DNA of 27,592 nt, taken from a virus. Lineage: Duplodnaviria > Heunggongvirae > Uroviricota > Caudoviricetes. Shown one piece after another: positions 1 to 18,702 of the stretch (positions within the stretch are counted from its first letter, which is position 1; every line of letters begins with the position of its first letter). Below the pieces are notes generated by a model that saw only the letters and a program-made list of their open reading frames with translations, was not told the origin of the DNA and did not search any database. A program made the position numbers and the translations under genes. The stretch lies in IMG/VR virus record IMGVR_UViG_2522572164_000008; one strand, written 5' to 3'.

Positions 1-153
1 ATGAAAAACATTGCAGCTATCAAACGTAATAACCGCAAGATTCACGCTCGTAAGTTCCTGTCTACGCCAGAAGGAAAAGCCTGGCTAGAGCGTAAACAGC
101 GAGAGAACGAAGAAAGAAAACTCCTTAGTGAGTTGAAATGGCTTAAGGATTGA
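1..153 (+). CDS. Possible small basic protein (50 aa) or 3' end of a gene truncated by the window start
   Basis: Open frame from position 1 ATG to TGA at 151-153 (MKNIAAIKRNNRKIHARKFLSTPEGKAWLERKQRENEERKLLSELKWLKD). Below the 60-aa cutoff of the ORF track; no upstream context visible. Confidence 0.2.
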   Translation: MKNIAAIKRNNRKIHARKFLSTPEGKAWLERKQRENEERKLLSELKWLKD

Positions 154-219
154 ACCACCAGTAGGCGCATAACACATCCAGCGATCAAAGATGTGTTTAT
201 GCACCTGATAGTGAAATTA

Positions 220-378
220 TTAAAGTCGTTTAGTTAACATCGCCATTGCTTGAGCAATAATTGCAACAGCGTCCATCTCTTCACTGGAAGCGATGCAAAT
301 GCGGTAACTAATAGCCACAACGAATACATCAATAACGAGAAAGTGAATAGTGTGAAGATGTTTTGAAAGTAAATGCAT
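220..378 (-). CDS. Unannotated 52-aa ORF with hydrophobic N-terminal half
   Basis: Minus-strand ATG at 378 preceded by GGAGG 5 nt upstream; translation MHLLSKHLHTIHFLVIDVFVVAISYRICIASSEEMDAVAIIAQAMAMLTKRL, stop at 220-222. Missing from the ORF track only because it is under 60 aa. Confidence 0.35.
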   Translation of the reverse strand: MHLLSKHLHTIHFLVIDVFVVAISYRICIASSEEMDAVAIIAQAMAMLTKRL

Positions 379-718
379 AACTTCCTCCGGTTTTACGATA
401 GGAAGATTAGAACATGCATTAAATGATGTTACAAGGGTGGTAATTTACCCTAATAGTCTACTATTCACCTCAATCTACGTCAACCAATATTTGATGTAGA
501 TTTAATTTTCTTTTAAAAACAATGTGTTGCAATTTGTTGAATTTTGGGGTTAGGTTGTTTTTTGAACGTTTTCATCAAGTGTAAAGATACGTTTAGCCTT
601 CATAGTGAGTTCAGTTACTGTCTTTTTCTCTGAAATCGGCGCAGACGTGATCAATGTTTAACGCGAAGATCAGCGGCGTCAGGTCCACGCAGCGACAATT
701 CTCAAATATCAGGAGGCA

Positions 719-1270
719 TTACGCTTCCTGCTCTTTCTTGATACGTTGCACCGTCTGTGTGCTGACACTGAAATCTTTTGCTACGCTCCGAATTGATCCA
801 CCATTCGCGAGAGCGGCAACAATTCCCGCTCGATCAATTGCTTTTCCATTACCACGTTTTGCTATACGTCCAGCGGCCTTAGCTGCGGCGATCCCCTCAC
901 GCTGCCGCTCAAGCATCATTTCACGTTCCATTTGTGCCACTGCTGCAAGCACTGTGAGCATCATATTCCCTGCGGGAGAGTTCTTCCCTGTCTTAAAGTC
1001 TTCTTTATGGAAATGCACAGACACGCCGCGCTCTGTTAATTGCTCAACCGTTGCCAGAAGGTCGGCTGTATTACGACAAAGGCGATCAATACTATGGACG
1101 TGTAACACGTCACCCTCCCGCACATAGTTCATCATTGCCTCAAACTGTGGGCGCTGAGTGTTCTTGCCTGACGCTTTATCTTCAAAGACTTTATCAAGAG
1201 TTACTCCAGCTAATTGACGGTCTGTGTTTTGTTGCACAGTCGATACCCTAATGTATCCAATATTAGCCAT
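719..1270 (-). CDS. Serine recombinase, resolvase/invertase family
   Basis: N-terminal GYIRVSTVQQNTDRQ catalytic-serine motif and C-terminal HTH (SIRSVAKDFSVSTQTVQRI), about 183 aa. Start taken as the second ATG (MANIGY), which has AAGGA 8 nt upstream; ORF-track start is 1276. Confidence 0.85.
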   Translation of the reverse strand: MANIGYIRVSTVQQNTDRQLAGVTLDKVFEDKASGKNTQRPQFEAMMNYVREGDVLHVHSIDRLCRNTADLLATVEQLTERGVSVHFHKEDFKTGKNSPAGNMMLTVLAAVAQMEREMMLERQREGIAAAKAAGRIAKRGNGKAIDRAGIVAALANGGSIRSVAKDFSVSTQTVQRIKKEQEA

Positions 1271-1835
1271 TTTCATTTTCCTTCTGTGTTGATTTGAGTG
1301 TAGTGATTATTGATCGTGTTGATTAGGTGTGTAAAGGACTTTTTTCACTACGAAATTCGAAGGTTTTTAGTGTGGTGATTTAGCCTGCTTTATCACTACA
1401 CGTCTTGCATGAGAATCATGTAGTTACATTTTGGTAAAATTAGCAAGCTATTAAATAGTGTGTTTATTTTGAAAAAATAATTTTTTGTTGCATTAAAGGA
1501 AACTTGTTCGACAAATAATAGATTGATTTTTAATCAACAATTTCTGATAGTGCTCTGTAAGCCGTATTACACAAGGCTTTGCGAAAGTGATGTAAAAGTG
1601 AAGAAAGCTAACATTGCACTTTTTAAGCTACTTTTCATTGGATTTTTACGTAGGAATTACACAGGGATTAATCATCAATTACATTGAATTTAAGCCTGTT
1701 TTAGATGTTTAATTTTGGTAGCAAGAAACACTTTTAGAAGATCATTGCACAGATGCTATGTGATGATTGGATGTAACGGTAGGTCACTGTGAGCTACCCC
1801 TATCAAGTCTGATACCCGATAAGTATAAATAACAC

Positions 1836-1934
1836 CTGGGAAATGAGTTCCGATCTATTTAGGAAATAACCGTGGAAGTGGTTTCCTACCTACCTAGGAA
1901 ATGAGTTCCTATCACCTAGGAAATGATTTCCGAC
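1836..1934. repeat. Three copies of a 13-bp dyad GGAAATGA(G/T)TTCC plus one split copy, next to a roughly 90% AT stretch (1935-2000)
   Basis: Copies read at 1836-1855, 1895-1913 and 1917-1934; split inverted half-sites at 1861-1889. Iteron-like or operator-like architecture. Confidence 0.6.
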
Positions 1935-2944
1935 AATACTATAATTAAACTACAATTAAACTATATAATATAATTCTTTTTTATCTTTATAAGAATAATT
2001 ATAGGGATACCCGTTAGGGAGTCTAACGACTATCCCTTAATCTATTGGCATTCGCCAGAACCTTGCACAAGTTAGAGTGTTAGTCGTTAGACTGCTTGTC
2101 ATAACACATAGTTTTTGTTTGTTGATGTTAGTTAGTAGATCTATGTTCGCTAATGCCGCTCACAACGAATATGTAATCTACTATGTGCAAATAGCCTACG
2201 GCTTGCGTAAGGCTAAATAGTCTTGCGCTGTGCGCTTCAATAGTTCCATTGATGAGGCTTACGCCAATCTAACGATCATCAATCTATTTAAGAGAAAATC
2301 TATTGTGCAATACTCTGACGAGTGCAATAACCTTGTGTGCTACGCGTTAGCGATGTTAGCACATAGACACAGACAACAACCAACAACAAACAAAAAAGAA
2401 AGAATGGTTTTAGTAGTTGAAGGTTAAATAAGTTTCTACCGCTTAAATCAAGCCGTAGGCGAGCTAAACGTATATAAGGCAGGGAAACCTTAGCGGTAAT
2501 AGATTAGCTCATTATAGAGCTTCTGAGGAGCTTTACAGGTATTTTATAAGGTGTCTGAAATTAGAGTTTATCTATCATCTCCTTTTCATATACCTAACAA
2601 ATACAAAATAAGCCCCTTAAATAAACCTCTGGCGAGCTAAACTGTCATTACATAAGGGAATGTATTGTTTTTATCAAAACCTCGTTAGAACGCGTTTTAG
2701 AGAATAAGGAAGAATAGCATCACACAGAAGAGCACGAATTGCTAAGCAAAATCATAACATACTGAAAAATGATCAATATTTTATGGGCGGGGTTGACAAA
2801 AGCCTTTAGTTATGGTAAAGTAATATTAGGGGCAGGAAAACATTCCTATCCTCTAAATAATTAAACCAATGCACCGCACTTTGAAGCCCAAGAGGCTTGC
2901 AAGGTGTCTTTTTCTTTTAACCAAATAGAATAGGAGGTTAATTA

Positions 2945-3127
2945 GTGAAGTATTTCACTTCTCAAGATGTAGTTGAAGCCTGGAAACGTGGTGAGATCAA
3001 CCGCTTTAGGGTAAGAATGAATAGGAACACAGCGCGACGCTGTGGTTATCCAGAGCGTGAAAAATGTTTTGACGATGCACTAAAAATTATTGATGAACTG
3101 CGTAAGGCAGGAGCAGAGAAAGAATAA
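2945..3127 (+). CDS. Hypothetical small protein (60 aa)
   Basis: GTG start with AGGAGG 7 nt upstream; first gene of a tightly packed same-strand array. Confidence 0.5.
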   Translation: MKYFTSQDVVEAWKRGEINRFRVRMNRNTARRCGYPEREKCFDDALKIIDELRKAGAEKE

Positions 3128-3150
3128 TAACAGGAGAAGGAGAAAACCAA

Positions 3151-3339
3151 ATGAATATTAATTTTGATTCTGCAACTTATAACGCGTTGTTAAATCGTGC
3201 AAAGGCAGAAGGGAAATCAATTCCAAAACTTGTTAATGAATTACTAATTACAGTCCTTACAAAGGAGGAACTAAATGATCAAAAATATCAAAACAATTGC
3301 CGAAGCGAAAGCCAAATGTCTAAATCAGAAAGATGGTAA
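3151..3339 (+). CDS. Putative ribbon-helix-helix (CopG/Arc-like) DNA-binding protein
   Basis: N-terminal strand-helix-turn-helix pattern (INFDSATYNALLNRAKAEGKSIPKLVNELL); GGAGAAGGAG upstream. Family call by pattern only. Confidence 0.45.
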   Translation: MNINFDSATYNALLNRAKAEGKSIPKLVNELLITVLTKEELNDQKYQNNCRSESQMSKSERW

Positions 3340-3943
3340 ACAAAAATATGTAGTCGTTGAGCAGTGGTTGAAGATGTTTAAAAAGTGGTTCTCACCGTCA
3401 GGTAATGAATACACCGCTACACTGCCAGCCGTTGAAATCTATAGCTATATAGCTGGATTCAATGAACAAGGGCAAGAATGTTACGCCACTCAAAAAACAT
3501 TATCTAATATTGGAATGGTTAGTGATCGCCAGGTTCGCAATATTATAAATATGTTTGTTGATATGGGAGTTCTTTCTGTAGAGGCTCGGGACGGGCAAAC
3601 ATCACTCTATAAAGCATTACCATTCACAGATGCACATATTACTCCCCCTGGAGAGTCATCACTACCTGATCCTTCTGAGAAAGAAGACGAATCTAATGAA
3701 ATATTGAATGTTTCCGAAATCATCGTTGAAGAAGAAACACAAGAGCCAGAGTTCCCTGAGCGGCCCGAAATTTTTACTTGGCTTCTTTCCCTTGATAAGA
3801 AGAAACCACCGCACGAAGAAACAGAAGATTTTGTAAAACGAGCATTAGATTCAAAGAATATCTATCTTTGTGAAAATGATTTTGACTCTTTGATAATTGA
3901 TCTCAAAAGTGAGAGCACAATATATGATTCACTACCCTTCTAA
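3275..3943 (+). CDS. Winged-helix/HTH protein with acidic C-terminal tail (222 aa), regulator or initiator-like
   Basis: AAGGAGG 6 nt upstream of ATG; HTH-like segment YATQKTLSNIGMVSDRQVRNIINMFVDMGVLSVE; C-terminal half rich in E/D/P. Overlaps the preceding ORF by 65 nt. Confidence 0.6.
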   Translation: MIKNIKTIAEAKAKCLNQKDGKQKYVVVEQWLKMFKKWFSPSGNEYTATLPAVEIYSYIAGFNEQGQECYATQKTLSNIGMVSDRQVRNIINMFVDMGVLSVEARDGQTSLYKALPFTDAHITPPGESSLPDPSEKEDESNEILNVSEIIVEEETQEPEFPERPEIFTWLLSLDKKKPPHEETEDFVKRALDSKNIYLCENDFDSLIIDLKSESTIYDSLPF

Positions 3944-3952
3944 GGAGAATAA

Positions 3953-4222
3953 ATGACTTATAACATCACTATAGGAAACAAAACTATTGAAATAACTGAA
4001 AGCGGATACAACATTTTAAAAGCTATTTTGGACATAGAGTTTTCACCACCGACAGTGGTTAGCTTTTGTAGTTTAGGCGGCTACAGCGCACAACACGTAA
4101 ATCATTGGTTAAATCATTTTACATCGTTCGGTGTGCTGGATTATGAAGGGATTAACAGCACTACATTTCGTCTTTTGAAATTAAACAAAGATTTTGAATT
4201 GTTTCTCACAAACAATCAATAA
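3953..4222 (+). CDS. Hypothetical protein (89 aa)
   Basis: Strong RBS (TAAGGAGAATAA-ATG); same-strand operon context. Confidence 0.5.
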   Translation: MTYNITIGNKTIEITESGYNILKAILDIEFSPPTVVSFCSLGGYSAQHVNHWLNHFTSFGVLDYEGINSTTFRLLKLNKDFELFLTNNQ

Positions 4223-4319
4223 CAACAGATCGGGCAATACATATGGCAAATGCATTTATGGCGATATTCATCGTAACAATGGCGTCCAGTTTTTATAATC
4301 CACATAAAAAGAGGGAAAA

Positions 4320-4703
4320 ATGGGAAGAAAGAAAAAGAACAACTTAAAACGTATTGAAAAAAACAGTAATTTCAATTCAAAAAGACAACGTCCACCGACA
4401 CACACCAATAACGAAATTCCAGGGGAAGAGATAATCTTTATTCTTGAAACAGAATCCCCTGAATTAAGTGATGAAGAATTAGAAATAATCCAATCAATGC
4501 CAGGCGTTTACTTTCGCCCAAGAACAAGAAAACAAACTATCATTTCTGATGGCACTCTGAAACGTTGGCAGCTTTTAGGGTTTAGCTCCTATCATCATTT
4601 TTTGGGATTTAACGCTTTCAATAATTGTGTAGGTGGTGCATCGGAAGTCGATCTGATGGCTCATTTAGAAGATACATTAGCTTCTAACAAACGTTCTAAC
4701 TAA
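4320..4703 (+). CDS. Hypothetical protein (127 aa) with basic N-terminus and acidic centre
   Basis: RBS AGAGGGAAAA-ATG; N-terminus MGRKKKNNLKRIEKN. Confidence 0.5.
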   Translation: MGRKKKNNLKRIEKNSNFNSKRQRPPTHTNNEIPGEEIIFILETESPELSDEELEIIQSMPGVYFRPRTRKQTIISDGTLKRWQLLGFSSYHHFLGFNAFNNCVGGASEVDLMAHLEDTLASNKRSN

Positions 4704-4718
4704 TAAAATGATGGGTGT

Positions 4719-4964
4719 ATGTATAAGCGCCCAATGAAAATATTCAAAAAAGGAAAAATAATGATTGGCTATATTCAAGAAACACAATTATTTCAGATGA
4801 TCCTGTCTGATGCAAAAAACTATGCAGAGTTAATTCGGCTGGCAAAAGAAACAGAAGACTACGAAGCATTAGAGCGTTACCGTGATGAAGTGCTGACGCT
4901 CAAGACACCTTTTAACATCGTATTGAATATGATTAATGATGCATTACAAGGAGAATACGCATAA
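4719..4964 (+). CDS. Hypothetical small protein (start ambiguous, alternative ATG at 4761)
   Basis: Open frame with AGGAAA upstream of the internal ATG at 4761; stop overlaps the start of the next gene. Confidence 0.4.
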   Translation: MYKRPMKIFKKGKIMIGYIQETQLFQMILSDAKNYAELIRLAKETEDYEALERYRDEVLTLKTPFNIVLNMINDALQGEYA

Positions 4965-5263
4965 TGGAAGAAGATATTAGCAATGCAATGGAACAACTTT
5001 TAGATCTGACTATCTCACTACAAACAAGAATAAATCAAGCCTATTCAGATTTATGCGATTACACGCTCTCTCAATGCGTTATTAGCTTAATGAAGGTGAA
5101 TGTAAGCCTTGACGATTTTATCTCTCTGGTGAGCGTATCAGAGGACGATGCAAAACAGTGTAATCAAATCATCACAGACATCGCCACCACGTTAAAGGTT
5201 GCAAGTGAAGAGATTCAGCAATTAGTAGATGATTTAGCAAAAAGTGCTATTTTCTCTAAATGA
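4964..5263 (+). CDS. Hypothetical protein (99 aa)
   Basis: RBS AAGGAGAA upstream; ATG overlaps the previous stop (TAATGG), suggesting translational coupling. Confidence 0.5.
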   Translation: MEEDISNAMEQLLDLTISLQTRINQAYSDLCDYTLSQCVISLMKVNVSLDDFISLVSVSEDDAKQCNQIITDIATTLKVASEEIQQLVDDLAKSAIFSK

Positions 5264-6253
5264 TAATGAAAATTATTTGCATTTATAATGATTTTGTTAT
5301 ATAATAATTTAGGGGTAGATAAAAAGATTTTAGTTGGTGTTAATCCTTCTACTGTCATAAATCCCTGCATATGGAAGGTGATAGCCTCAAAGGTTGAGTG
5401 GCATTAACCTCTAACAAATATTACCTTCCATCTCTCAAGAAGTTTTAGAATAATCATAACTCCCTCTTTGATTGTTGATTGTTGATTGTTTCTACGTTGT
5501 GTTGATGAATGTTGTTAGGCATTGTGCTTAATTTTGATAAAAGCGGGTAGGTGTTATCTCCTTGCCCTTCCCGCTCTTATTTTTCATCTATGCTTATCCT
5601 AAAGCTCCTTATTTTGTCAGAAAACATTAAAGAGCCTTACACTGATAGTTATATTTTATAACTATTTACTAACATCATTAAACTATTATTTAATGACAGA
5701 AGTTAGTAACAGAATAATCTATTAAGTTGTTGTCAAAAACAATCATCTGCATAGCGTTAGCCGCAAGCAGAGAGAGTTTAGCTAAGAATGGTGCAATAAA
5801 CTTTGGAAATATTGATAGCAAAACGGGTTTTATAGAATGCGGATCTATAAGCTTTGGTTGTAAAAACGATTTTCTGAAACGGTAGATTACTGTTGGTGTA
5901 GTTAATCATTATTAAAAATTTAATCCGTGAGTAGATTGGAATAGTGATTCCTTAAAATCTGACTGGTGCATCCACACCATGAAAGATAGCGGTTGGCCAC
6001 CGCGCCCCGAATAGATATTCCTGATTGATTCCGCATGTTTTCCTAAGAGCATGTTTTCAGGAGTATCTATTCACCCTTTAAGCATATCATCAAGTATATT
6101 TAAAAAGTGTATTTGCTGATATGTTTAATCCTCTTATAGTTTAACTTATCAATTATGTAATTGCCCGCACGTTAAAGCCCCTTTGCTGGTCAGAATTAAC
6201 CTCTTACGGCATTGGGGCTTTTTATTTGTCTGGCACTAACAGGAACATTATTT

Positions 6254-6451
6254 ATGAAACAAGAAATGATTATCAGCAAAGACGGGGAAACGATGATTGT
6301 TAGTGATGAAAACCTCATTAAGGTTGCCGCACTGTTGGGAGTTACTCCCGAAAGTCTTCGTTCTACCACTGCTCAATTATTTAAATCGGCTGATGCGGTT
6401 AGTCTTGCTGATGCCCTTAAATCTAAAATTAAACAACTGAAAGGAAAATAA
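6254..6451 (+). CDS. Hypothetical small protein (about 65 aa)
   Basis: ATG at 6254 with AGGAA 8 nt upstream; the ORF-track start at 6212 lies inside a terminator-like hairpin and is unlikely. Confidence 0.45.
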   Translation: MKQEMIISKDGETMIVSDENLIKVAALLGVTPESLRSTTAQLFKSADAVSLADALKSKIKQLKGK

Positions 6452-6455
6452 TCTT

Positions 6456-6839
6456 ATGGCTAACCCATATGGAAAATTAAAAGCAGTGAATGCGGATAAC
6501 TCCCGTTCACGCTGTAAGGTAGTAGCTTACGCTGCTGATCCAGTGCTGCAAGATCGCCTCGTCAAACTGGCTTCACCTCTCACTGACGATCTTATTGTCG
6601 GGGCTTTGCTGAAAGCCGATGGCACCAAAGCAACAACCGCATCTGATATTGCTCACGTAGTAGTTGAACCGGCTTATGAAGGACAGGAAAGCGTAGTGGT
6701 TGCACATCCTACTTTCGTTATTCTGGCTGAAGATGGGATTGAATTTAACAGCATGGAAAAGGCAAGTGTTATTGCAAAACTGCAATCTCTCGGCTTTGTA
6801 ATTGCTGGTTATGAAGAACTTGCGATCCCTACGACTTAA
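6456..6839 (+). CDS. Hypothetical protein (127 aa)
   Basis: RBS AAAGGAAAA; starts 4 nt after the upstream gene and is followed 14 nt later by the next gene. Confidence 0.55.
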   Translation: MANPYGKLKAVNADNSRSRCKVVAYAADPVLQDRLVKLASPLTDDLIVGALLKADGTKATTASDIAHVVVEPAYEGQESVVVAHPTFVILAEDGIEFNSMEKASVIAKLQSLGFVIAGYEELAIPTT

Positions 6840-6853
6840 CAAGGAAAATAATA

Positions 6854-7885
6854 ATGAATGATTTATCAACATATTTTGGCGTTAATACTGCGGTAGTAAC
6901 TCCATTTGCTTATGAGAATGCACTTAATACCCTGATTACTAATCTCGATCTGTTCGATGTGCAATATCATACAGAAAACAGCATTCTTCTTACCGACCTG
7001 ATTGATCAGTTTGTGCAGGTAGCTGGGGAAACCTCGCCTTACGCTCAAAGCGACTGGAACGCCTCTAAACGTCAGGAATGGTCAAACAAACTTTTCCAGA
7101 TGAAACACGTCGGCAGTATTAACGCTGTTACTTCTCGTGACCTGGAACAATACAGCCGCCAATATCCAAACCGTTCTGATGCTATGCTGATAGCGGTTAA
7201 TGATTTCTCTGAGGCTCATTACCGTTCACACGCAAACCGTGTTGAAGTGGATCTGATTACCGCGCTGCTGGGCCTGAAAGTTGAATCTGAATATGCCGGA
7301 CAAGGTGATCTCGACTTCCTCGACGGTCAGGCTAAAACCACGGTACCCGCTATCGACTTTGCATCGACTACTGTTAACCCGTTCCTTGCTATTCGTAAAG
7401 CGGTGCGCTTACAGAGTGAAAAGCTGGGGTCTGGTCTTGCTGCAAAGCGAACTGGTGTAATTATCTTTGCTGCTGGCACTGCTGCTGATGGTTTGTCATC
7501 TAACCCGCTGATCAGTGACATGGTGAAATATGCAGGCGATGCGAGTGCTACGGCCCTGTTTACCCGTATGGTTGATTCTAACCCAGCCTATGACTCTTTC
7601 CAGATTGGTGGGATCACTGTTATTGATGTGTCAATGTTTCCTGAGATTGTTGCTCACATCGGAGAGAACGGTTTCGCAATTGTTCCGGTAATGGATAAAG
7701 CGGCACAGTGTTACCAGCTTCATAGCGGCGTTGGTGTGCGTCATGCTGAGTTAGGTCAAGATGCCGTGTTGCATCACCAATATCTAATCAAGGATGAATT
7801 CCAATTCCCATCTGTGGTTACTGAGACATCTTATCTGCCAGTAAACAACATTCCGCAAGCTATCATCTTCGGATCTGCTGCGTAA
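6854..7885 (+). CDS. Hypothetical protein (343 aa), no recognisable catalytic or nucleotide-binding motif
   Basis: RBS CAAGGAAAA; long ORF with protein-like composition; no Walker A seen. Confidence 0.65.
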   Translation: MNDLSTYFGVNTAVVTPFAYENALNTLITNLDLFDVQYHTENSILLTDLIDQFVQVAGETSPYAQSDWNASKRQEWSNKLFQMKHVGSINAVTSRDLEQYSRQYPNRSDAMLIAVNDFSEAHYRSHANRVEVDLITALLGLKVESEYAGQGDLDFLDGQAKTTVPAIDFASTTVNPFLAIRKAVRLQSEKLGSGLAAKRTGVIIFAAGTAADGLSSNPLISDMVKYAGDASATALFTRMVDSNPAYDSFQIGGITVIDVSMFPEIVAHIGENGFAIVPVMDKAAQCYQLHSGVGVRHAELGQDAVLHHQYLIKDEFQFPSVVTETSYLPVNNIPQAIIFGSAA

Positions 7886-8036
7886 TAAAGCGTTAATAGA
7901 CGATTCCCCATCGGGGCAATAAGGGTAAAGGGATTAACTAACCTGTAGGCGCAAATACAGTAACGAATCTCTTTGCCCTTTTTGTTTTTCTACTGTCTAC
8001 AAACCCAAATAAAAATATATATGTGAGAGAAAACCA

Positions 8037-8234
8037 ATGAATACAGAAAACCCACAATCCTTTATTCTTAAGGCTGTAAAAGAACTGGCAGCTATTAGCG
8101 AGGAATCAGTTATAAACACATCGGCGCTTTGCCGCCTTTTAGAAATTGATGCAAATAATGTGCGCCAGCGTGTCTTTCAGACTGGGTGCAGCACTTTCGA
8201 AGCAATTCAATACTATTGCTCTAAAAAACAATAA
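8037..8234 (+). CDS. Possible small HTH-like protein (65 aa)
   Basis: Weak RBS; segment TSALCRLLEIDANNVRQRV is HTH-like. Could be non-coding leader. Confidence 0.3.
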   Translation: MNTENPQSFILKAVKELAAISEESVINTSALCRLLEIDANNVRQRVFQTGCSTFEAIQYYCSKKQ

Positions 8235-8268
8235 TAAACAACAATCATAATACAGGGAAACAATTAGC

Positions 8269-10110
8269 ATGTTAGAACTTAACGTCAGCCGCTTATCAAA
8301 CGTTGTCACCTTCCAGGTTGATCGACCATCATTAGAGAAAGCAAAAGCAGAAGTAGAAAAACTTCGTAAACAAATGGCGGCGGTGAAAGATATAGAATTG
8401 CGTGTTAAGACACATAAACAATCAACTTCTAAAGCAAAAAAAGACGTAGACGATATTGCTAAAAAGCAAGCACAGGCAGATAAAGCCAATGCTAAAGCAC
8501 AATTAGCCGCTCAACGTGTAGTTGCAAGAGAACAAAAAGCCCTGGCAGCACGCAAAGAGAAGGCAGACTTAAAACTGTTAGACGTTGGATCAAGCATTAG
8601 TGCATTGCACCGCCTTTCTGTAGCGGAACAATATAAAGCTATTGCACAGGCTAGAGAAATTGCCCTCCAATATGAAAGAGGAGCTATTAGTCTGGCACGT
8701 ATGAATAGCCAAATGAAACGCCTACAACAGCAACAACGTAAGATTAATGGCAATCGTAACGCTCACGCTAAAGCCTATGCACCTGTTAAGGGTAGCGGGA
8801 GTATTGGCGGCGGTGCTGCGGCTGTTATGCTGGGTGGCTTAGGCGCTGGCGCTACGTATATGGCTATGAGCAAAGCCTCTGAATTTGTTACTAACAGCTT
8901 TGCGAATGCTGAAACGCTGGGTGAATTGTATAGCCGTGCGAAGCTGGGCGGTGTAGACGTTAACCAGATGAACAATATTGAGCAATGGGCCTACAAAAAC
9001 GGCGTTGATTCAATGATGGGGGATCAAGGTAAACGTAAGTATCTCGATCAGATGAAAGATGTGCGTGAGCGTGCAACCAAAAGCTATGATGAGGCTGAAT
9101 ATGTAGTCGATAAAAAAACAGGCAAAGGTGAATGGAAGGGCGGCGATAGCGGCATCAATACTTTAATGAATGAAGGATTCTTAACTAAAAAGGATCTAAA
9201 AGACTTTGCTGATAATCCGGCTGGTCTGGTTAGTAAAGCAGTTCAGGGAATGGTGAAGAAAGGCTATTCAGATGCACAAATCGGTAGTCGTCTGGAAGAT
9301 CTGGCTGATGATTTGATGCTCACCTCTAAATACTGGACACGCTCCGCTAAAGAAGTGGAACAATCAGCACGAGAACAACGAGAATCAGGGCGCTGGGTAA
9401 CACAGGCACAACAGGAAAGCGTTATTAAATTCCGTGAACTGAATAATGCACTTAGTGGGCTTTCTGACTCACAAGGGATCGCCTTTGTTGATGGCTTTAT
9501 GAAATCTCTTGATCCGAAAGTGATTGAAGAGTTTAAAAAGAGCATGGTTGCAATGCTGCCAATGTTTACCAAATTAGGCGAGGCTATCGGCGGATTGGTT
9601 AACGCCGTAATGAAAACAATCAACTGGCTGATGAAAAACGACGAGAAGACGGAAGCTATTCAGAAGAATTTAGGGGATGCACCGCCACTATCTAACGAAG
9701 GAATGAAGCAGAATCTTTCTAATCTCACTCCTGATCAATATAAAGGCGCTGGCACCGGAACAACTAAGCCAGATAACAGCAATTCCCTGGTTAACACTAT
9801 TAAAAGCTGGTTTATGCCAGAAGAAACGGTAGGTGGGGCGCAGGCTGTAAATCAATACAGTCTCGAAGGACAAAACATTGCAAATCTGAAACAGAGTGCA
9901 GCACAACAAGCTTTCAAGGCTCCTTCTTACACCTTTGCACCTGTTATTAACTTCAATCCAGAATTACAAGTAAATGCAGAAGTGCCGCTAACTATCGAAT
10001 CAGACACCGGACGATTGAGCGAATTTATCGACTTCAAATCAAAGGCATCCTCCGCTGAGTTTAGCAAGCTATTAACGCTGGGTGTTATGTCAGGCGGGTC
10101 AACCTATTAA
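8269..10110 (+). CDS. Large protein (613 aa) with Lys/Ala/Gln-rich N-terminal predicted coiled coil, a Gly/Ala-rich hydrophobic segment and a roughly 400-aa C-terminal domain
   Basis: RBS CAGGGAAACA; residues about 20-160 are K/A/Q/E-rich heptad-like; about 170-200 reads GSGSIGGGAAAVMLGGLGAGATYMAM. Confidence 0.7.
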   Translation: MLELNVSRLSNVVTFQVDRPSLEKAKAEVEKLRKQMAAVKDIELRVKTHKQSTSKAKKDVDDIAKKQAQADKANAKAQLAAQRVVAREQKALAARKEKADLKLLDVGSSISALHRLSVAEQYKAIAQAREIALQYERGAISLARMNSQMKRLQQQQRKINGNRNAHAKAYAPVKGSGSIGGGAAAVMLGGLGAGATYMAMSKASEFVTNSFANAETLGELYSRAKLGGVDVNQMNNIEQWAYKNGVDSMMGDQGKRKYLDQMKDVRERATKSYDEAEYVVDKKTGKGEWKGGDSGINTLMNEGFLTKKDLKDFADNPAGLVSKAVQGMVKKGYSDAQIGSRLEDLADDLMLTSKYWTRSAKEVEQSAREQRESGRWVTQAQQESVIKFRELNNALSGLSDSQGIAFVDGFMKSLDPKVIEEFKKSMVAMLPMFTKLGEAIGGLVNAVMKTINWLMKNDEKTEAIQKNLGDAPPLSNEGMKQNLSNLTPDQYKGAGTGTTKPDNSNSLVNTIKSWFMPEETVGGAQAVNQYSLEGQNIANLKQSAAQQAFKAPSYTFAPVINFNPELQVNAEVPLTIESDTGRLSEFIDFKSKASSAEFSKLLTLGVMSGGSTY

Positions 10111-10157
10111 TCATCACTGTGGGGCTGTTTAGCCCCCTTAAATAAGGATTACAAATT

Positions 10158-10835
10158 ATGGCAATGGGTCCGTTAACCATTGGTCGCCCGACTGAGGCGA
10201 AAATCAACAGCACAAGCAACGATAGCAACGGTAGAACAACCAAAGGGGGTAACGGCTTTGCGATCATTACCTCTAATCTCGGCAGTGGTGCAAATGCTGC
10301 TTACAATGACTACCAGGCATTATCATTTGATAGCGTGGAATCGACGAAAGTTAGCAGAAATGCGGACGTTACAAGCTATGCCGTCGAATCAGGATCAGAA
10401 GTTAGTGATCATGTTCAAATACGGAATAACAAGTTCACATTACAAGGGCGTATCTCTGAAACCGTATTGAAGCTCAATCCTGATATGATTAAGAATGCTG
10501 GAATTAACGGCAATCGACGTATGCTTATGCTTGAATACCTAAATCAGTTGATGGACAGTCGCCAACCTTTCCTACTTGTCACTGAGTTAAAAAATTATGA
10601 CAACGTTGTGTTAGTTGGCATGTCTTACGAAGAAGAAGCAAGCGAAAGCCTATTGTTTACTCTTGATTTTGAGCAAATCCGTCTTGTCTCTAAAGCAACT
10701 ACAAGCGCAATTGCGGTAAAAACAGCACCAAATAAATCTGTAGGAGGCCAGGTTAAAATGCAGGTAAATACAACAGAACAGAAAAATCAAAAAAGCCCAG
10801 GGCAAGACGTTGTAACGCCAGTATTTAAACAATAG
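10158..10835 (+). CDS. Hypothetical protein (225 aa)
   Basis: RBS TAAGGATTACAAATT-ATG; last gene of the same-strand array. Confidence 0.6.
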   Translation: MAMGPLTIGRPTEAKINSTSNDSNGRTTKGGNGFAIITSNLGSGANAAYNDYQALSFDSVESTKVSRNADVTSYAVESGSEVSDHVQIRNNKFTLQGRISETVLKLNPDMIKNAGINGNRRMLMLEYLNQLMDSRQPFLLVTELKNYDNVVLVGMSYEEEASESLLFTLDFEQIRLVSKATTSAIAVKTAPNKSVGGQVKMQVNTTEQKNQKSPGQDVVTPVFKQ

Positions 10836-10876
10836 CCTTAAACGCCTATGAAACGCTCTGTAACGAGATAATCATA

Positions 10877-10908
10877 AAAGAGGCATCAGTCTATATTGAA
10901 GCCTCTTT
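10877..10908. terminator. Putative bidirectional terminator between convergent genes
   Basis: AAAGAGGC ... GCCTCTTT 8-bp inverted repeat followed by T-rich sequence, between the 225-aa gene stop and the integrase stop. The loop is long (16 nt). Confidence 0.4.
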
Positions 10909-10915
10909 ATTACGT

Positions 10916-11820
10916 CTATAGCGTTGTTTTACGCCTTAAATTTGATTTTTTATTGATTGATAAGCCTTTCTCTATTTCAGGGTAGCGTAAAAGCTCAATA
11001 TATTTTTTAAGCTCTATTGGAGAAGCTGCATTTTTGCTATATGTGCGGAATGTTTCTGTATTGCCGCGTGTATGGCCCAGGAGAAGGGCGATCCTGTCTT
11101 CTGGAATTTGATTTCGATCAAGAAGCTGTGCTACTCCGTGTCTCAGAGAATGAAACACTTTCCTTTCTGTTCCCTTTTCCCCTAAAGCCTTTCGTTTAGC
11201 TCTTGTAAATCGTTGTGTATGCCACGTAGAGCGTTTACCGTCAGCACGTTCTGTAATGCTGGCGTGATAGAACAAAAAGCCATTGTGAGGCTTTTCACGC
11301 AGCGACAACACCAACGGAGTGATAAGGTTATGCACAGGCACAACACGTGCCGCAGCTTTCGTCTTTCCCTGTGTGATTTCAAAACACAGCACACCTTCGA
11401 TCTCTTTCACATCGTCTATTGTGAGACTTGCTATCTCATTGATCCGCATACCTGTATATAAACCGATAAGACACAAAGCCGTCATTTCTTTGTTTTCTGC
11501 TGAATTACCGGAAAATACTTGCAACACCTGCAATAGCTCTTTGTTAGAAAATGCCTCGTAGCTCTCTCTACTTTGTGCCACATCAAGCCTATGCCCTCGC
11601 CAGGGGGAGAGCGCCCTTTCTGGCGCATCGTGGTAACGTGATGAAGCTAATTCCCATAGCTGGGCCATTGGACTGATATAATTTGCAATTGATTGTTGTG
11701 AAAGAGTTTTTTGCATGTGTTCAATCCAGCCTGTAACAGTGGTGCGGCTTACATCTTGCAATGCAATATCAGGCTTTTTACGGTAGGAGAGAAACATCTC
11801 TACCGCTTTTCTTGCCTTAG
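10916..11820 (-). pseudogene. Tyrosine integrase, C-terminal catalytic fragment (separated from its N-terminus by IS5)
   Basis: Contains H-x-x-R (FHSLRHG), LLGH and a C-terminal Tyr (RTYSK) typical of tyrosine recombinases. The first 23 codons of the ORF-track protein are read from inside IS5. Confidence 0.8.
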
Positions 11821-13015
<1,195 letters not shown>

Positions 13016-13479
13016 TTAGCTAAAGTGGCTGGCTTCTTCTTCGTGCTGTTAATTGTCAGGTAGATTTCAAGAATTTTAAGCAATGACGGACACGAAGACG
13101 CTGTATCTTGCACTCTGGTAGCTGTTTTGGCGTATTTAGCCTTACTGCGTAACAGTTCCAGCGTGTTTTCTATTGTGCTGTTTACAGGGGCAACACTCTC
13201 CCGTAAGCAATGGTATTCATCTGCAATCTGATCACGCTTTCTACGTGCAACACGAAGATTACTTGTGTGTAGACTTCTGACAAACGTCCTTTTTCCTTCA
13301 AAAAAGGGCTGCATATACACAGGCAGCGTGATCCTTAAATAGTAGTTACCGTAAGAATCACAGATTAAGTATTGGTTAGGCTTGTATCTCATAAAATCTC
13401 CGGCTAAAGTGTCGGAGCGTTTGTAATGTGAAAATTGATTGTGACGCATAGAAAATGATGATTTTTCTATAAGATTCAA
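13016..13479 (-). pseudogene. Tyrosine integrase, N-terminal fragment (continues at 11820-10916 across IS5)
   Basis: N-terminal integrase-like segment (YYLRITLP...GKRTFVRSL). The ORF-track protein then reads through into IS5 (about 36 aa of IS-derived sequence). Frame arithmetic shows the two fragments are in frame once IS5 and one TTAG copy are removed. Confidence 0.8.
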
Positions 13480-13644
13480 TCAATTAGTAATGGTCGTAGG
13501 TGATGGCATTAACACGAGATTAATCGAGTGTTTTACTCCTATTATCGGCACCATTCTAATGTCTCCCCAAGTCTACTCAAGTATTTAAAAACCTCTTATA
13601 ATCCGCATGTTAGCGCCCCTTTTAGTCTTTTGACGTCTACTTAA

Positions 13645-13717
13645 GTACCCCAAAATCTACAGTCAATTGGGGGTACTTTTGGGGGTATTTGCTGTTCAGT
13701 TTAGTGGAGGTACCCCC
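13645..13717. promoter_or_regulatory. GGGGGTA(C/T)/TACCCC(C) repeat cluster in the inter-integrase region
   Basis: Four copies in rev-fwd-fwd-rev orientation (13645-13651, 13669-13676, 13681-13688, 13709-13717), immediately upstream of and overlapping the integrase RBS. Confidence 0.4.
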
Positions 13718-13719
13718 AA

Positions 13720-14934
13720 GTGAAACTCAATGCCCGTCAAATAGACACTGCCAAGCCAAAAGAGAAGGCTTACAAGCTGGCTGATGGTGGTGGTCTGTAT
13801 CTCTTGGTAAAACCTAGTGGAGGAAAATATTGGCGCTTCAAGTATCGTGTAGCTGGTAAAGAGAAGCTGTTAGCACTAGGTGTGTATCCTGAAGTTACTT
13901 TGGCTGATGCTCGTGCAAAACGTGAAGAAGCTAAAAGGGGTATCGCTGGGGGTATCGATCCGATGGAAGCGAAACGAGAGGAAAAGATTGCCCGGGAAAC
14001 GCAGTTAAACAACACCTTCAAAGATATTGCCCTTGAGTGGCACAGCAGCAAATTAAAAAAATGGTCTGCTGGTTATGCTTCAGACATCCTCGAAGCCTTC
14101 AACAAAGATGTGTTCCCTTACATTGGCAAAAAACCAATCGCCGAAATCAAACCACTTGAACTGCTGAATGTGCTGCGGCGCATCGAGGGGCGCGGTGCTA
14201 CCGAAAAAGCCAAAAAAGTGAGGCAGCGATGCGGGGAAGTTTTCCGCTATGCAATTGTCACTGGACGTGCTGAGTATAACCCTGCACCGGATCTCACCAG
14301 CGCGATGCAAGGTCATGAATCTAATCATTATCCTTTCCTCACAGCCAAAGAATTACCTGATTTTTTCAAGGCATTGTCCAGTTACTCAGGAAGTGCATTG
14401 GTTGTTATGGCGGCTCGTCTACTGATTATCACCGGTTTGCGGACTGGCGAACTGCGCGGTGCATTATGGGATGAAATCGATCTCAACAAGGCTATCTGGG
14501 AGATACCTGCTTCACGGATGAAAATGCGTCGCCCTCATGTGGTGCCTTTGTCTAAGCAGGCTCTTTCGCTTATTGGGCAGATTAAAGAATTAACTGGCAA
14601 TTATCCGCTTATGTTTCCCGGCCGTAATGATCCAAGGAAAACAATGAGCGAGGCTAGCATAAACCAAGTATTTAAACGCATCGGCTATAACGGAAAGGTT
14701 ACTGGTCATGGATTCCGGCACACCATGAGCACCATTTTGCATGAGCAGGGCTATAACACCGCGTGGATAGAGACGCAGCTCGCACACGTCGATAAAAACT
14801 CAATTCGTGGCACATACAACCATGCGCAATATCTGGATGGACGGCGGGAAATGCTTCAGTGGTACGCCGATTATATGGATTCGCTCGAGCATGGCGGAAA
14901 TGTGGTGCATGGTGAGTTCGGAAAATGCGGGTGA
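13720..14934 (+). CDS. Tyrosine integrase, P4/CP4-57-like family (404 aa)
   Basis: GTG start with GGAGG 9 nt upstream; N-terminus ARQIDTAKPKEKAYKLADGGGLYLLVKPSGGKYWRFKYR typical of P4-type integrases; catalytic R...HGFRHT...Y region near the C-terminus. Confidence 0.9.
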   Translation: MKLNARQIDTAKPKEKAYKLADGGGLYLLVKPSGGKYWRFKYRVAGKEKLLALGVYPEVTLADARAKREEAKRGIAGGIDPMEAKREEKIARETQLNNTFKDIALEWHSSKLKKWSAGYASDILEAFNKDVFPYIGKKPIAEIKPLELLNVLRRIEGRGATEKAKKVRQRCGEVFRYAIVTGRAEYNPAPDLTSAMQGHESNHYPFLTAKELPDFFKALSSYSGSALVVMAARLLIITGLRTGELRGALWDEIDLNKAIWEIPASRMKMRRPHVVPLSKQALSLIGQIKELTGNYPLMFPGRNDPRKTMSEASINQVFKRIGYNGKVTGHGFRHTMSTILHEQGYNTAWIETQLAHVDKNSIRGTYNHAQYLDGRREMLQWYADYMDSLEHGGNVVHGEFGKCG

Positions 14935-15062
14935 CTGGTTGAGTATACAGTAGTAGACTTTGAGCGACGAAAGAAAAGGCTGTGTCTAGGGGCGCTCCCG
15001 AAAATCCGTACATCTCGACGGACTGGTACAGCCACTACAGTAGAGGACGCTGAGGTGTGCGT

Positions 15063-15860: not shown

Positions 15861-15875
15861 CGCACCATACCGCAT

Positions 15876-15985
15876 ACCCTGAGGGTGATTTACTGTTACC
15901 CTGAGGGTATTTTTTTATCTTCCCCGTCAATTTTACCATCACCCTTAGGGTTAATTTCCTTCCGGTAACCATTAGGCCTGAGGGT
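15876..15985. promoter_or_regulatory. Array of ACCCT-N-AGGGT palindromes upstream of alpA
   Basis: Perfect copies at 15876-15886 and 15898-15908, variant ACCCTTAGGGT at 15941-15951, partial at 15977-15985. Confidence 0.5.
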
Positions 15986-16054
15986 ATGAAAATATTCGTT
16001 ATTTCTGTGCCATGATTACCTCGTCAAATTGAGTAGACGTTATGAGGTAAATAT

Positions 16055-18154: not shown

Positions 18155-18176
18155 CAGAATGTCCGGTTATTTTGAG

Positions 18177-18692: not shown

Positions 18693-18702
18693 GAGGTGCA
18701 CC

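Follow-up and report, generated by a model that had tools for sequence, protein, structure and literature searches.

The window analyzed here, a stretch of 27,592 nucleotides, contains a 13-gene array carried as cargo by a 12.96-kb integrative element, which is inserted in thrW of Escherichia coli O104:H4. The last block of the array encodes a capsid decoration protein, a major capsid protein (MCP), a tape measure protein (TMP), and a tail tube initiator, and, by sequence comparison, the element is a member of a conserved Enterobacterales family and not debris. We give an even chance to the reading that it is a phage satellite, of a new family, of large virulent Stephanstirmvirinae myoviruses. 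No prior description of such an element was found in the literature.

The element is flanked by 20-nt repeats of the 3' end of the thrW tRNA-Thr (ACTCCTATTATCGGCACCAT; in sequence L001 at 16877-16896, inside the tRNA, and at 29837-29856), and its left end lies approximately 605 nt upstream of the window start. A P4-like or PICI-like island directly adjoins it in the thrW array. An earlier note on this DNA had placed the genes between a resolvase and a disrupted integrase, beside an ori-like repeat region, and both descriptions were borne out. The features outside the array are as follows.

1..153, + strand: small basic ORF of 50 aa near the left (thrW-proximal) end, hypothetical in RefSeq
637..712, + strand: 75-nt non-coding block with homology to the Phapecoctavirus direct terminal repeat (DTR) at its left boundary
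719..1276, - strand: serine recombinase (resolvase/invertase type), PF00239 (1.1e-38) plus a C-terminal HTH
1794..1935, no strand: ori-like region with a conserved 33-nt block and, after it, three 22-nt iterons
2023..2304, no strand: two copies of the composite motif CTAACGA-N-AATCTATT, at 2023 and 2269
2766..2841, + strand: operon 1 promoter/operator region, TTGACA-17-TAAAGT, with a sigma-70-like match at 2793-2821
5264..6253, no strand: 1-kb non-coding spacer separating the two operons; 5940-6003 holds a conserved 65-nt block and hairpin
10916..11820, - strand: C-terminal catalytic part of a tyrosine integrase, PF00589 (7.6e-18)
11821..13015, + strand: IS5 (ISKpn26-family) insertion disrupting the integrase, with a TTAG target duplication, from the L001 comparison
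13020..13392, - strand: N-terminal part of the integrase (DUF6538), PF20172 (2.5e-9), coordinates from the L001 comparison
13535..13554, no strand: attR, the 20-nt direct repeat of the thrW tRNA-Thr 3' end, at the right end of the element

The tyrosine integrase sits at the element end distal to thrW and is intact (425 aa) in strain 2011C-3493; because the IS5, whose identity is also given by the RefSeq annotation of IS-bearing strains, splits it, the window copy cannot excise by itself. The 2011 outbreak strain has an intact version of the element. In the Klebsiella and Yersinia elements, a small tyrosine recombinase takes the place of the serine recombinase. The 50-aa ORF is the best conserved protein of the family, its counterparts in the elements of Citrobacter, Kluyvera, and Raoultella being 73-78% identical in amino acid sequence. 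Within the ori-like region, the 33-nt block (1794-1826) is 94% identical to the Citrobacter element, and the iteron-like triple repeat at 1834-1935 has the core CCTAGGAAATGAGTTCC. The operon 1 promoter region is 80% identical to the Klebsiella element and the spacer block at 5940-6003 is 80% identical in a second E. coli variant, the surrounding DNA being unalignable in both cases. Promoter-like sites were found for the spacer at 5260-5305, and an Rfam search of it gave no match.

The 13 ORFs, of which RefSeq annotates 12, all lie on the + strand in two blocks (2945-5263 and 6254-10835), as had been noted. The description of the array as AT-rich clearly holds for block 1, given its GC content of 36.5%; block 2 has 43.3% GC and the E. 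coli genome about 51%. The ribosome-binding sites reported as consistently AGGA-type are AGGA/GGAG-type, 5-12 nt upstream, for most ORFs and weak for those at 8037 and 8269.

2945..3127, + strand: 60-aa conserved small protein, 34-79% identity across genera, dN/dS 0.03-0.04
3151..3339, + strand: 62-aa RHH-like regulator, weak PHROG transcription-regulator match
3275..3943, + strand: 222-aa winged-helix (wHTH) protein, replication-initiator-like, HTH_36 (5.5e-5) and PHROG replication-initiation matches down to 3.6e-6
3953..4222, + strand: 89-aa variable protein, homologue only in E. coli variants, dN/dS 0.33
4320..4703, + strand: 127-aa core protein with a basic N-terminus, 30-50% identity in elements of seven loci
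4719..5263, + strand: two small variable ORFs of 81/67 aa (starts 4719/4761, to 4964) and 99 aa (4964-5263), dN/dS 0.16-0.37
6254..6451, + strand: 65-aa protein that opens the structural operon, 58% identical in the L007 variant
6456..6839, + strand: 127-aa capsid decoration (cement) protein, lambda gpD/phage 21 SHP-like, AF2 model pLDDT 70
6854..7885, + strand: 343-aa HK97-fold MCP (lambda gpE family), PHROG 29 (4.7e-5)
8037..8234, + strand: 65-aa conserved protein preceding the tape measure gene, 30-47% identity in seven elements
8269..10110, + strand: 613-aa TMP, PHROG 16051 (3.4e-34)
10158..10835, + strand: 225-aa tail tube initiator, PF21821 Dit_like (1.2e-27)

In operon 1, the 60-aa protein had no family match and is perhaps a regulator or an excision factor. 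The 127-aa core protein showed dN/dS values of 0.06-0.16, its sole match being PHROG 5488 (unknown function), and the ORF pair at 4719..5263 gave no family matches.

The earlier view that the array holds no recognizable protein does not stand: at least four of the 13 ORFs encode head or tail components with clear homology to phage structural genes, and the wHTH protein is a fifth recognizable product. Foldseek, a structure-based search of the kind the note had suggested, led from the 343-aa protein to capsid proteins, which made up all of its top matches and included the ICP1 capsid protein (8g1r) among the best folds, and from the decoration protein first to decoration chains (PhiTE, Sf14, and Bas63; E 6e-6 to 1e-4) and next to SHP and gpD. 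PF03864 (Phage_cap_E) is present in homologues of the 343-aa protein at 42-49% identity; its best PDB sequence match is Phi92_gp124, and hhalign against gp145, the MCP of phage Mt1B1_P17, gave an E-value of 2.9e-5 over 294 columns, the Yersinia orthologue matching gp145 over its full length (E 1e-12). The decoration protein falls in 138 protein clusters, every named one from Enterobacteriaceae, and showed no sequence-level match to gp146 of the putative helper. Remote-homology profile searches, also proposed earlier, identified the 613-aa protein as a tape measure and the 225-aa protein as a Dit_like tube initiator. The former matched Phi92_gp134 (E 1.5e-22) and is 25-30% identical to the TMPs of 134 Stephanstirmvirinae-type records; its Klebsiella orthologue matches 134 phage records too, with a near-identical organism/host breakdown, and is 40% identical to phage TMPs (E 1e-73). 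The latter matched Phi92_gp135 (E 7e-54) and the tube initiators of PDB 9cuy and phage Pam3, and is 53% identical to Phapecoctavirus gp134, whose gene lies immediately 3' of the phage TMP gene. The best solved homologues are Phi92 gp124, gp134, and gp135.

As the note had observed, terminase, portal, and packaging ATPase genes are absent from the array, and the recombinase-bracketed unit with its ori-like region is not a conventional phage. Searches with Pfam, PHROGs, and NCBIfam, and tblastn against the full genome of the putative helper, detected no genes for terminase, portal, sheath, tube, baseplate, or lysis.

The same gene order was found in 10 loci from nine genera, and the architecture recurs in Klebsiella, Citrobacter, Raoultella, Kluyvera, Yersinia, and others. 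Capsid protein identity across the family is 29-56%, other genes going down to 23%, and all comparisons in which divergence could be measured, for 11 of 12 analyzed ORFs, gave dN/dS values of 0.03-0.37. The retained order and these dN/dS values indicate that the ORFs of the array are real genes. The conserved core across genera consists of structural genes, not replication genes.

Each time, the structural genes point to one phage lineage. The element order decoration-MCP ... small ORF-TMP-initiator mirrors gp146-gp145 ... gp136-gp135-gp134 of Mt1B1_P17, and homologous genes stand in this order in Stephanstirmvirinae (phi92, phAPEC8/Phapecoctavirus, Justusliebigvirus). The 65-aa protein at 8037..8234 stands in place of gp136 (72 aa), with no detectable similarity to it; at the 6254..6451 position, the Yersinia gene mimics the N-terminus of helper gp147, whereas the E. 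coli protein shows no such mimicry. GC content is also similar (element, 40.0%; phage, 38.9%). However, these phages are approximately 150 kb, whereas the element is 13 kb, is integrated, and has an integrase. About 95% of the phage genome has no counterpart in it, the missing part taking in every packaging, tail-shell, and lysis gene, and the identity of its MCP and TMP to those of the phages is only 22-30%.

DNA patches 93-98% identical are shared by the element and strictly lytic phages, indicating at the sequence level that the element has recently exchanged DNA with Stephanstirmvirinae. The segment 3137-3303 is 98% identical to gene bas60_0101 of phage PaulScherrer, and the 222-aa protein matches the second wHTH domain of Mt1B1_P17 gp053 at 88% identity over 93 residues, with a common linker; gp053 comprises two wHTH domains and an endonuclease-like domain. 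Independently, the Raoultella element has 67 nt at 95.5% identity in common with FBKp34, a Stephanstirmvirinae phage. The patches sit in a phage cassette that behaves like a mobile homing-endonuclease region, and they therefore prove co-residence and recombination, not parasitism. The motif CTAACGA-N-AATCTATT also occurs in the Raoultella element and FBKp34, and its sole copy in Mt1B1_P17 lies in the intergenic gap 22964-23132, approximately 1.3 kb downstream of gp053; it is a candidate protein-binding site common to the element and these phages. The iteron was not found in the phage genome, allowing up to three mismatches.

The 637..712 block, whose homology has sharp edges in the alignment, has a non-coding counterpart, 81-86% identical, in 65 phage records (E ~1e-11 against 2.3 Gb). 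Its counterpart in Mt1B1_P17 is 150846-150926, and position 1 of that record, the start of a 328-nt terminal redundancy, corresponds to window position 660. The termini of Mt1B1_P17 were determined with PhageTerm (PMC10470868), and a related phage has a 342-bp DTR (PMC12210895). The block is a candidate mimic of a packaging or cleavage site.

The satellite reading draws on the att repeats and integrase, the conserved family, the structural-gene subset of a single phage lineage, the recent DNA exchange, the 75-nt DTR-boundary block, the similar GC content, and a recent precedent for tape measure genes. This precedent is the EPIPs of Mycolicibacterium, satellites reported in a preprint to have both an MCP and a TMP, whose authors emphasize the lack of TMPs in other satellites (PMC12822802); compared by description only, EPIPs differ in being actinobacterial, in having a prophage helper, and in carrying a serine integrase, small terminase, head-tail adaptor, stopper, and scaffold. 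Capsid-forming PICIs (cfPICIs) are small integrative satellites of Enterobacteria and others with their own HK97-fold capsid protein and no remodeling of the helper capsid (bioRxiv 10.1101/2022.09.08.507074). They encode a whole capsid and packaging set (portal, protease, connectors, and small terminase) and steal only tails, whereas our element has only the MCP and decoration protein, lacks portal, protease, and terminase, adds tail-core genes (TMP and tube initiator), and has a virulent 150-kb myovirus as its putative helper. PLEs of Vibrio cholerae are, as proposed here, chromosomal satellites of a large strictly lytic myovirus (ICP1), and rely on this helper for replisome, virion parts, and terminase (bioRxiv 10.1101/2024.04.22.590561). 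However, PLEs reuse the helper capsid protein with an external scaffold, whereas the element has its own; recombinase, replication protein, and host clade all differ, and no PLE-type genes were detected. P4-like satellites are also tRNA-integrated E. coli elements, of ~11-13 kb, but P4 has no capsid or tail homologues of its helper, and its Sid, Psu, Delta, AlpA, and alpha primase were not detected in the 13-gene element (Pfam, PHROGs).

Several observations count against a satellite. The terminal-repeat-like block is not family-wide, being present only in E. coli variants and as a 41-nt Citrobacter trace; the TMP lengths are close (613 aa versus 659-662 aa in the helper), so that a change in tail length is not evident; no promoter motif common to element and phage was found; and, as a weak negative, viral and metagenome contigs yielded no excised attP junction. 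Compatibility of the capsid protein with the helper portal, scaffold, and protease is only putative, since the MCP is ~22-24% identical to that of the putative helper.

The missing excised or packaged form would also fit a domesticated, phage-derived interference or defense island, in which the capsid, TMP, and tube-initiator homologues act as dominant-negative decoys against Stephanstirmvirinae assembly and the element itself is neither packaged nor transferred by these phages. We consider this combination unlikely. In its favor, the homologues are all directed at a single phage lineage, a benefit to the host is suggested by purifying selection and wide distribution, and the wHTH protein, lacking the gp053 nuclease domain, could compete with gp053 for binding. 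However, no protein matches any of 5027 PADLOC defense models, a capsid protein of 22% identity is unlikely to poison the phage protein by co-assembly, and a conserved integrase, att sites, second recombinase, iterons, and terminal-repeat-boundary copy would serve no obvious purpose in a pure defense locus. The two readings overlap, as known satellites also interfere with their helpers.

Still less probable is an integrative plasmid-like or hitcher element moved by another route (conjugative mobilization or generalized transduction), with the phage genes as mere captured cargo. The initiator-like wHTH protein, iterons, and resolvase do form a plasmid-style maintenance set, and 62% of the query region occurs at 94% identity on a 166-kb conjugative plasmid, but no relaxase, oriT, or mobilization gene was detected in the element, its conserved core is structural, and the terminal-repeat-boundary homology is left unexplained. 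Finally, a decaying remnant of a once complete prophage, as the tRNA integration beside another island, AT-richness, phage structural genes, and IS5 might suggest, is very improbable, because the same reduced gene set and order persist from E. coli to Yersinia with capsid identity down to 29%, all ORFs are intact and under the dN/dS constraint given above, the 1-2-kb non-coding regions hold no pseudogene traces relative to phage, and the related phages are large lytic viruses of 145-150 kb, with no integrase annotated in the one genome inspected in full.

With the proteins recognizable, the puzzle is now why an integrative element has only this subset of the structural genes of a large myovirus. 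If it is a satellite, helper infection would lead to its excision by its integrase, and it would replicate from the iteron region through the wHTH initiator-like protein together with replication functions of the helper or host. The shell and cement proteins encoded by the element would build a capsid, presumably of a size to hold 13 kb, on the portal and scaffold of the helper, and the helper terminase would recognize and cut the terminal-repeat-boundary mimic. The particle would be finished with helper tails, nucleated and measured by the tube initiator and TMP of the element, and the diversion of helper resources would thereby interfere with the phage.

The window is chromosomal DNA of Escherichia coli O104:H4. 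The 8.5 kb searched (window 2500-11000) is 100% identical to strains such as 2009EL-2050 and 2009EL-2071, both of which carry an IS5-family insertion nearby that is absent from the 2011 outbreak strain 2011C-3493, and at least 80% of this region is present in approximately 141 of 5426 complete Escherichia coli genomes. proA and the tRNA-Thr gene thrW lie immediately upstream. The 20 nt at the 3' end of thrW (ACTCCTATTATCGGCACCAT) are found once more, between the integrases of the element and of the next island, and this single recurrence delimits the element at 12.96 kb without IS5. The array described in the earlier note (2945-10835) holds up as a set of genes: all 13 plus-strand ORFs are present at the positions reported there, and AGGA/GGAG-type ribosome-binding sites precede most of them. 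RefSeq annotates 12 of the 13, all but one as "hypothetical". The layout of the element is as follows.

Left end, 605 nt before the start of the window
Left part, two small ORFs, followed by the 75-nt block and then the resolvase gene
637-712, non-coding, 75-nt block just 3' of the resolvase gene
719-1276, minus strand, serine resolvase (PF00239 at 1e-38)
After the resolvase gene, approximately 1.7 kb of non-coding sequence containing three 22-nt iterons
Operon 1 (GC 36.5%), plus strand, regulators, a winged-helix (wHTH) protein and small proteins
Spacer between the operons, 1 kb, non-coding
Operon 2 (GC 43.3%), plus strand, proteins in the order 65 aa, decoration, capsid, 65 aa, tape measure, tube initiator
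Right part, strand opposite to the operons, tyrosine integrase with an N-terminal DUF6538 domain
11821-13015, IS5 (ISKpn26-family, 1195 bp), splits the integrase of the element, TTAG target duplication
13554, right end of the element

The resolvase and the disrupted integrase said to bracket the array are thus both there, and because IS5 splits the integrase, the copy in the window should not be able to excise unaided. A second island lies next to the element, in tandem in the same thrW site, and its terminus is a degenerate third copy of the thrW repeat. It occupies window 13555-27592 and beyond (29857 to approximately 45190 in L001, the IS5-free reference locus) and encodes an integrase (13720-14934), an AntA/AntB antirepressor, an Icd-like protein, a DUF927 primase (19553-21685), ProQ/FinO, and PerC, and it looks like a P4-like or PICI-type satellite. 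The AAA ATPase at its end (26597-27592) matches PARIS AriA at 4e-43, and a DUF4435 gene comes next in the reference strain.

The earlier note had called the proteins of the array unrecognisable, but profile, PDB-sequence, and Foldseek searches yielded tube initiator, tape measure, capsid, decoration, and wHTH assignments; the array is much more interpretable than was judged, and the finding itself is real. The remote-homology searches proposed there gave matches to known phage tail families for the 613-aa and 225-aa proteins. The 225-aa protein matched PF21821 (Dit-like) at 1e-27, with 97 bits against a gathering cutoff of 24.2, and, among PDB sequences, Phi92_gp135 at 7e-54 as well as the tube initiators of 9cuy and phage Pam3; it is a tail tube initiator (Dit-like). 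The 613-aa protein matched the tape measure family PHROG 16051 at 3.4e-34 and Phi92_gp134 at 1.5e-22, and its gene lies directly upstream of the tube initiator gene, syntenic with gp135-gp134 of the reference phage Mt1B1_P17. Both homology and position therefore identify it as a tape measure protein (TMP), of nearly the same length as the TMPs of the presumed helper phages (613 versus 659-662 aa).

The 343-aa protein itself falls under the Pfam reporting level and has a weak match to PHROG 29 "major head protein" (4.7e-5). Its homologues (42-49% identity), named as major capsid proteins (MCPs), belong to PF03864, the capsid family of lambda gpE. The profile of its family aligned end to end with the Mt1B1_P17 capsid protein gp145 (hhalign E 2.9e-5, 294 columns), which is a strong member of PHROG 29, and its top match among PDB sequences, a weak one, was Phi92_gp124. 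The structure-based search suggested in the earlier note was also informative: with a low-confidence AlphaFold model (pLDDT 56), all 12 Foldseek matches at E <= 0.001 were HK97-fold capsid proteins. Sequence and model together place this protein in the lambda gpE/PF03864 family as an HK97-fold MCP, with 22-24% identity to the capsid protein of the presumed helper. The gene directly upstream encodes a 127-aa protein whose model (pLDDT 70) is closest to proteins that decorate the capsids of PhiTE, Sf14, and Bas63, with phage 21 SHP and lambda gpD next. No sequence-family match was obtained for it, and neither BLAST nor hhalign detected similarity to the helper decoration protein gp146; its kinship with phage decoration proteins is predicted by fold alone. 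The 65-aa protein that precedes the TMP showed no similarity to phage gp136.

Among phages, the relatives of the tail genes are all Stephanstirmvirinae-type myoviruses of 145-150 kb. The element TMP matched 134 phage records with 25-32% identity, and the TMP of the Klebsiella element also matched 134 records, with a near-identical breakdown by organism and host, up to 40% identity, and E 1e-73. The tube initiator has 53% identity to the Phapecoctavirus protein encoded directly after the tape measure. The gene order in Mt1B1_P17 is gp147, decoration gp146, capsid gp145, and, further on, gp136 (72 aa), TMP gp135 (662 aa), and initiator gp134; its decoration-capsid and small ORF-TMP-initiator groupings recur in the same order in the element. 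In the Yersinia member of the family, the capsid protein matched gp145 over its full length (E 1e-12), and a 96-aa protein encoded upstream of the decoration gene has 50% identity with the N-terminus of gp147. The GC content is 40.0% for the element and 38.9% for the phage.

By contrast with these head and tail genes, the rest of a virion is missing. None of the ORFs matched a large terminase or portal in Pfam, PHROGs, or NCBIfam; tblastn with the element ORFs did not find terminase gp150 or portal gp149 of Mt1B1_P17, and window 1-13600 had no DNA match to either. Tail tube and sheath, baseplate, and lysis genes were likewise not found by the same family searches or by tblastn and DNA comparison with Mt1B1_P17, so that the tail genes of the element are the TMP and the tube initiator only. 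We conclude that this integrative element carries a limited selection of head and tail-core genes, which share homology and synteny with those of Stephanstirmvirinae, and lacks the other virion, packaging, and lysis genes.

DNA has also been exchanged with Stephanstirmvirinae. Window 3137-3303 has 98% DNA identity with Justusliebigvirus PaulScherrer, and window 3370-3687 has approximately 93% with several phages. The 222-aa winged-helix protein of operon 1, which has PHROG matches of a replication-initiator-like kind, is 88% identical over 93 residues to the second winged helix of phage gp053. gp053 and its counterpart inny_184 comprise two wHTH domains and an endonuclease-like domain, and the gene is present in inny and Mt1B1_P17 but cleanly absent in PaulScherrer (sequence loci compared: L003 3519-4622, L008 20722-21708, and L057 2515-2867). 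These results suggest a mobile cassette of the homing-endonuclease type that exchanges with the chromosomal element too. Because the cassette is variable among phages, the shared patches show only that DNA of the element and of the phages has come together in the same cells and recombined there.

A separate tie was found in the Raoultella element, in which 67 nt (L019 5572-5638) have 95.5% identity with FBKp34 (L058 2501-2567), a Klebsiella phage of the Stephanstirmvirinae. This is its only match above 90% among 50,697 phage records, and its other two phage matches are marginal (48 nt at 84% identity). The FBKp34 block lies approximately 130 nt downstream of a TnpB-like IS200/IS605 gene, and the 67 nt include the motif CTAACGA-N-AATCTATT, also present in the E. 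coli element. In the Klebsiella element, a non-coding 46-nt block approximately 230 nt upstream of operon 1 (L004 5956-6001) has 87.5% identity with non-coding sequence of T5-like Salmonella phages (Epseptimavirus), where, in several records, it lies a few hundred nucleotides from the genome end or repeat region; this block may be a promoter, an operator, or another terminus-proximal mimic.

The element also carries a copy of a phage terminal-repeat boundary, and it has iterons as well as an initiator-like DNA-binding protein. The 75-nt block at 637-712 has 81-86% identity with non-coding sequence of 65 Phapecoctavirus-type records, and the homology has sharp limits on both sides. Its counterpart in Mt1B1_P17 is 150846-150926. 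This phage, whose termini were determined by PhageTerm (PMC10470868), has a terminal redundancy of 328 nt, the first base of which (position 1 = 150875) aligns with window 660; a direct terminal repeat (DTR) of 342 bp was reported for a related phage, also by PhageTerm (PMC12210895). The BI-EHEC and WPEC1 records end 357 nt from the block, as do WPEC4 and WPEC6 by their listed coordinates. Because the block matches the mapped left edge of the DTR, the element has sequence that straddles this boundary in the phage concatemer, where the terminase must cut. The block is thus a candidate packaging signal, whose copy in the element the helper terminase might recognize. A weak 34-nt match (82%, E 0.04) of window 5019-5052, inside a 99-aa ORF, to phage DTR positions 271-304 is probably due to chance.

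The iteron (CCTAGGAAATGAGTTCC) is absent from the phage at up to three mismatches, and k-mer counting of the element intergenic regions against the phage genome returned common words that were all of low complexity, with no shared promoter or other short motif. The core 127-aa protein of operon 1 (4320-4703) gave nothing interpretable, either alone against Pfam or as a seven-member alignment against PHROGs and PDB sequences. No assignment came from the Pfam, PHROGs, PADLOC, NCBIfam, or PDB-sequence searches run on the remaining small ORFs, and NCBIfam matched no element protein. An Rfam scan of window 1-14000 (E <= 1) found no RNA family, and the window has no tRNAs. In the spacer, two sigma-70-like promoters (5260-5305) are followed approximately 270 nt on by a GC-rich hairpin and T-run seen by eye (approximately 5541-5585), which the terminator scan did not list; a separate 65-nt block with a hairpin (5940-6003) is conserved between E. 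coli variants. Together these features hint at a small RNA or leader.

The element is a discrete integrative unit with an integrase and att sites, is well below phage genome size, and is without functions for forming particles alone, as is general for phage satellites, and we judge the chance about even that it represents a candidate new family within this known category. Its gene repertoire would be unusual for a satellite, and its helper is plausible. It is not a complete tailed prophage, as it has no terminase, portal, tail shell, baseplate, or lysis genes. Like cfPICIs, it encodes its own capsid protein, but cfPICIs combine the MCP with their own portal, prohead protease, head-tail connectors, and small terminase, whereas family and fold searches found the MCP and decoration protein only. 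Classical PICIs have a primase or replicase and packaging-redirection genes and no virion structural genes; this element has structural genes, and no primase was detected in it. No match to Sid, Psu, Delta, AlpA, or the alpha primase-helicase of P4-like satellites was found in the 13 ORFs. By analogy, the element would work most like a satellite of a virulent phage, as PLEs do for ICP1, although PLE-type genes were not detected in it. A tailocin (no sheath or tube, capsid genes present) and a filamentous phage (no Zot-like ATPase, capsid genes present) were also rejected. The actinobacterial EPIPs are satellites reported to carry a tape measure gene; according to their authors, no other satellites have a TMP, with the exception of PLE11, for which one has been proposed (PMC12822802). 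Beyond EPIPs, no other satellite reported with such a gene was found in the literature searched, and the limited full-text library searched yielded no account of this family or of any satellite of Stephanstirmvirinae, Phapecoctavirus, or phi92.

Three other explanations were weighed. A non-mobilised defence or decoy island would be consistent with the lineage specificity of the phage relatives, but this would leave the integrase, att sites, second recombinase, iterons, and terminal-repeat copy unexplained, and PADLOC lends it no support, as its defence-protein models gave 0 matches for all element proteins tested; we consider it unlikely. A plasmid-like hitcher is compatible with the genes for replication and resolution and with a copy on a conjugative plasmid. 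The latter, on the 166-kb plasmid NZ_CP126938.1 (34734-40614) of E. coli from chicken liver, covers 62% of the query region at 94% identity, so the element or part of it occurs on plasmids too. The conserved core is structural, however, and mobilisation genes are absent, which makes this explanation improbable. A prophage remnant is very unlikely, being contradicted by the conservation data.

These data come from loci across Enterobacterales that share one gene order: a recombinase (minus strand), a 2-kb gap, small regulators, the core 127-aa protein, decoration, capsid, a small ORF, tape measure, in some loci the tube initiator, and then an integrase (minus strand). This order was found in a second E. 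coli variant at a different chromosomal site, in Klebsiella, Citrobacter, Buttiauxella, Phytobacter, Kluyvera, Scandinavium, and Raoultella, and, with a capsid identity of 29%, in Yersinia massiliensis. Capsid proteins share 29-56% identity among the family loci, and other genes less, down to 23%. The decoration protein falls into 138 protein clusters, the named ones all from Enterobacteriaceae, and dN/dS was 0.03-0.37 in each ORF comparison that had measurable divergence. A prophage in decay would not retain one and the same reduced set of genes intact over such a range, and the sequence comparisons demonstrate a conserved family under purifying selection, not debris. The best-conserved protein of the family is a basic 50-aa product of the thrW-proximal ORF at window 1-153, with 73-78% identity in Citrobacter, Kluyvera, and Raoultella. 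Citrobacter sp. NCU1 (L013 5884-12326) has a second operon-1 regulator set and a 41-nt trace of the DTR-like block downstream of the integrase of the first element, which suggests two family members in tandem.

Contigs of IMG/VR and of JGI metagenomes were searched for the exact attP junction that an excised circle would have, with 0 matches, and the seven metagenome contigs with the DTR-like block that were checked had no circularised junction, most of them running into chromosomal flanks. IMG/VR relatives of the capsid gene lie on 20-58-kb contigs, most with IDs resembling isolate-genome (prophage-call) identifiers, and they are therefore not evidence of encapsidation.

As a satellite, the element could act as follows. 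On infection by a virulent helper, it would excise and replicate; its own shell and cement proteins would form a capsid on the helper portal and scaffold; the helper terminase would cut and package it at the mimic site; and the particle would acquire tails of the helper, built on the tube initiator and TMP of the element. We tentatively propose, at somewhat below an even chance, that this is the first recognised satellite family of Stephanstirmvirinae, which are large phi92/phAPEC8-like virulent phages infecting Enterobacterales, with a strategy new to description in which the capsid shell, the cement, and the TMP and tube initiator, located in the lumen and at the base of the tail tube, are its own, the portal, terminase, sheath, tube, baseplate, and fibres are those of the helper, and packaging proceeds via mimicry of the DTR boundary. 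If so, the family would stand midway between satellites that remodel the capsid of the helper and satellites that make a complete capsid themselves, and it would be a rare example of tail-core proteins being supplied by a satellite; a satellite with such proteins in E. coli would make the role of a TMP for a satellite experimentally accessible.

Phages like phi92 and phAPEC8 are common in coliphage collections, and members of the group have been considered for therapeutic use against E. coli and Klebsiella. If a widespread element parasitises them, their host range, burst size, and therapeutic reliability would be affected, and Enterobacteriaceae, including outbreak lineages such as O104:H4, would have a gene-transfer route driven by virulent phages.
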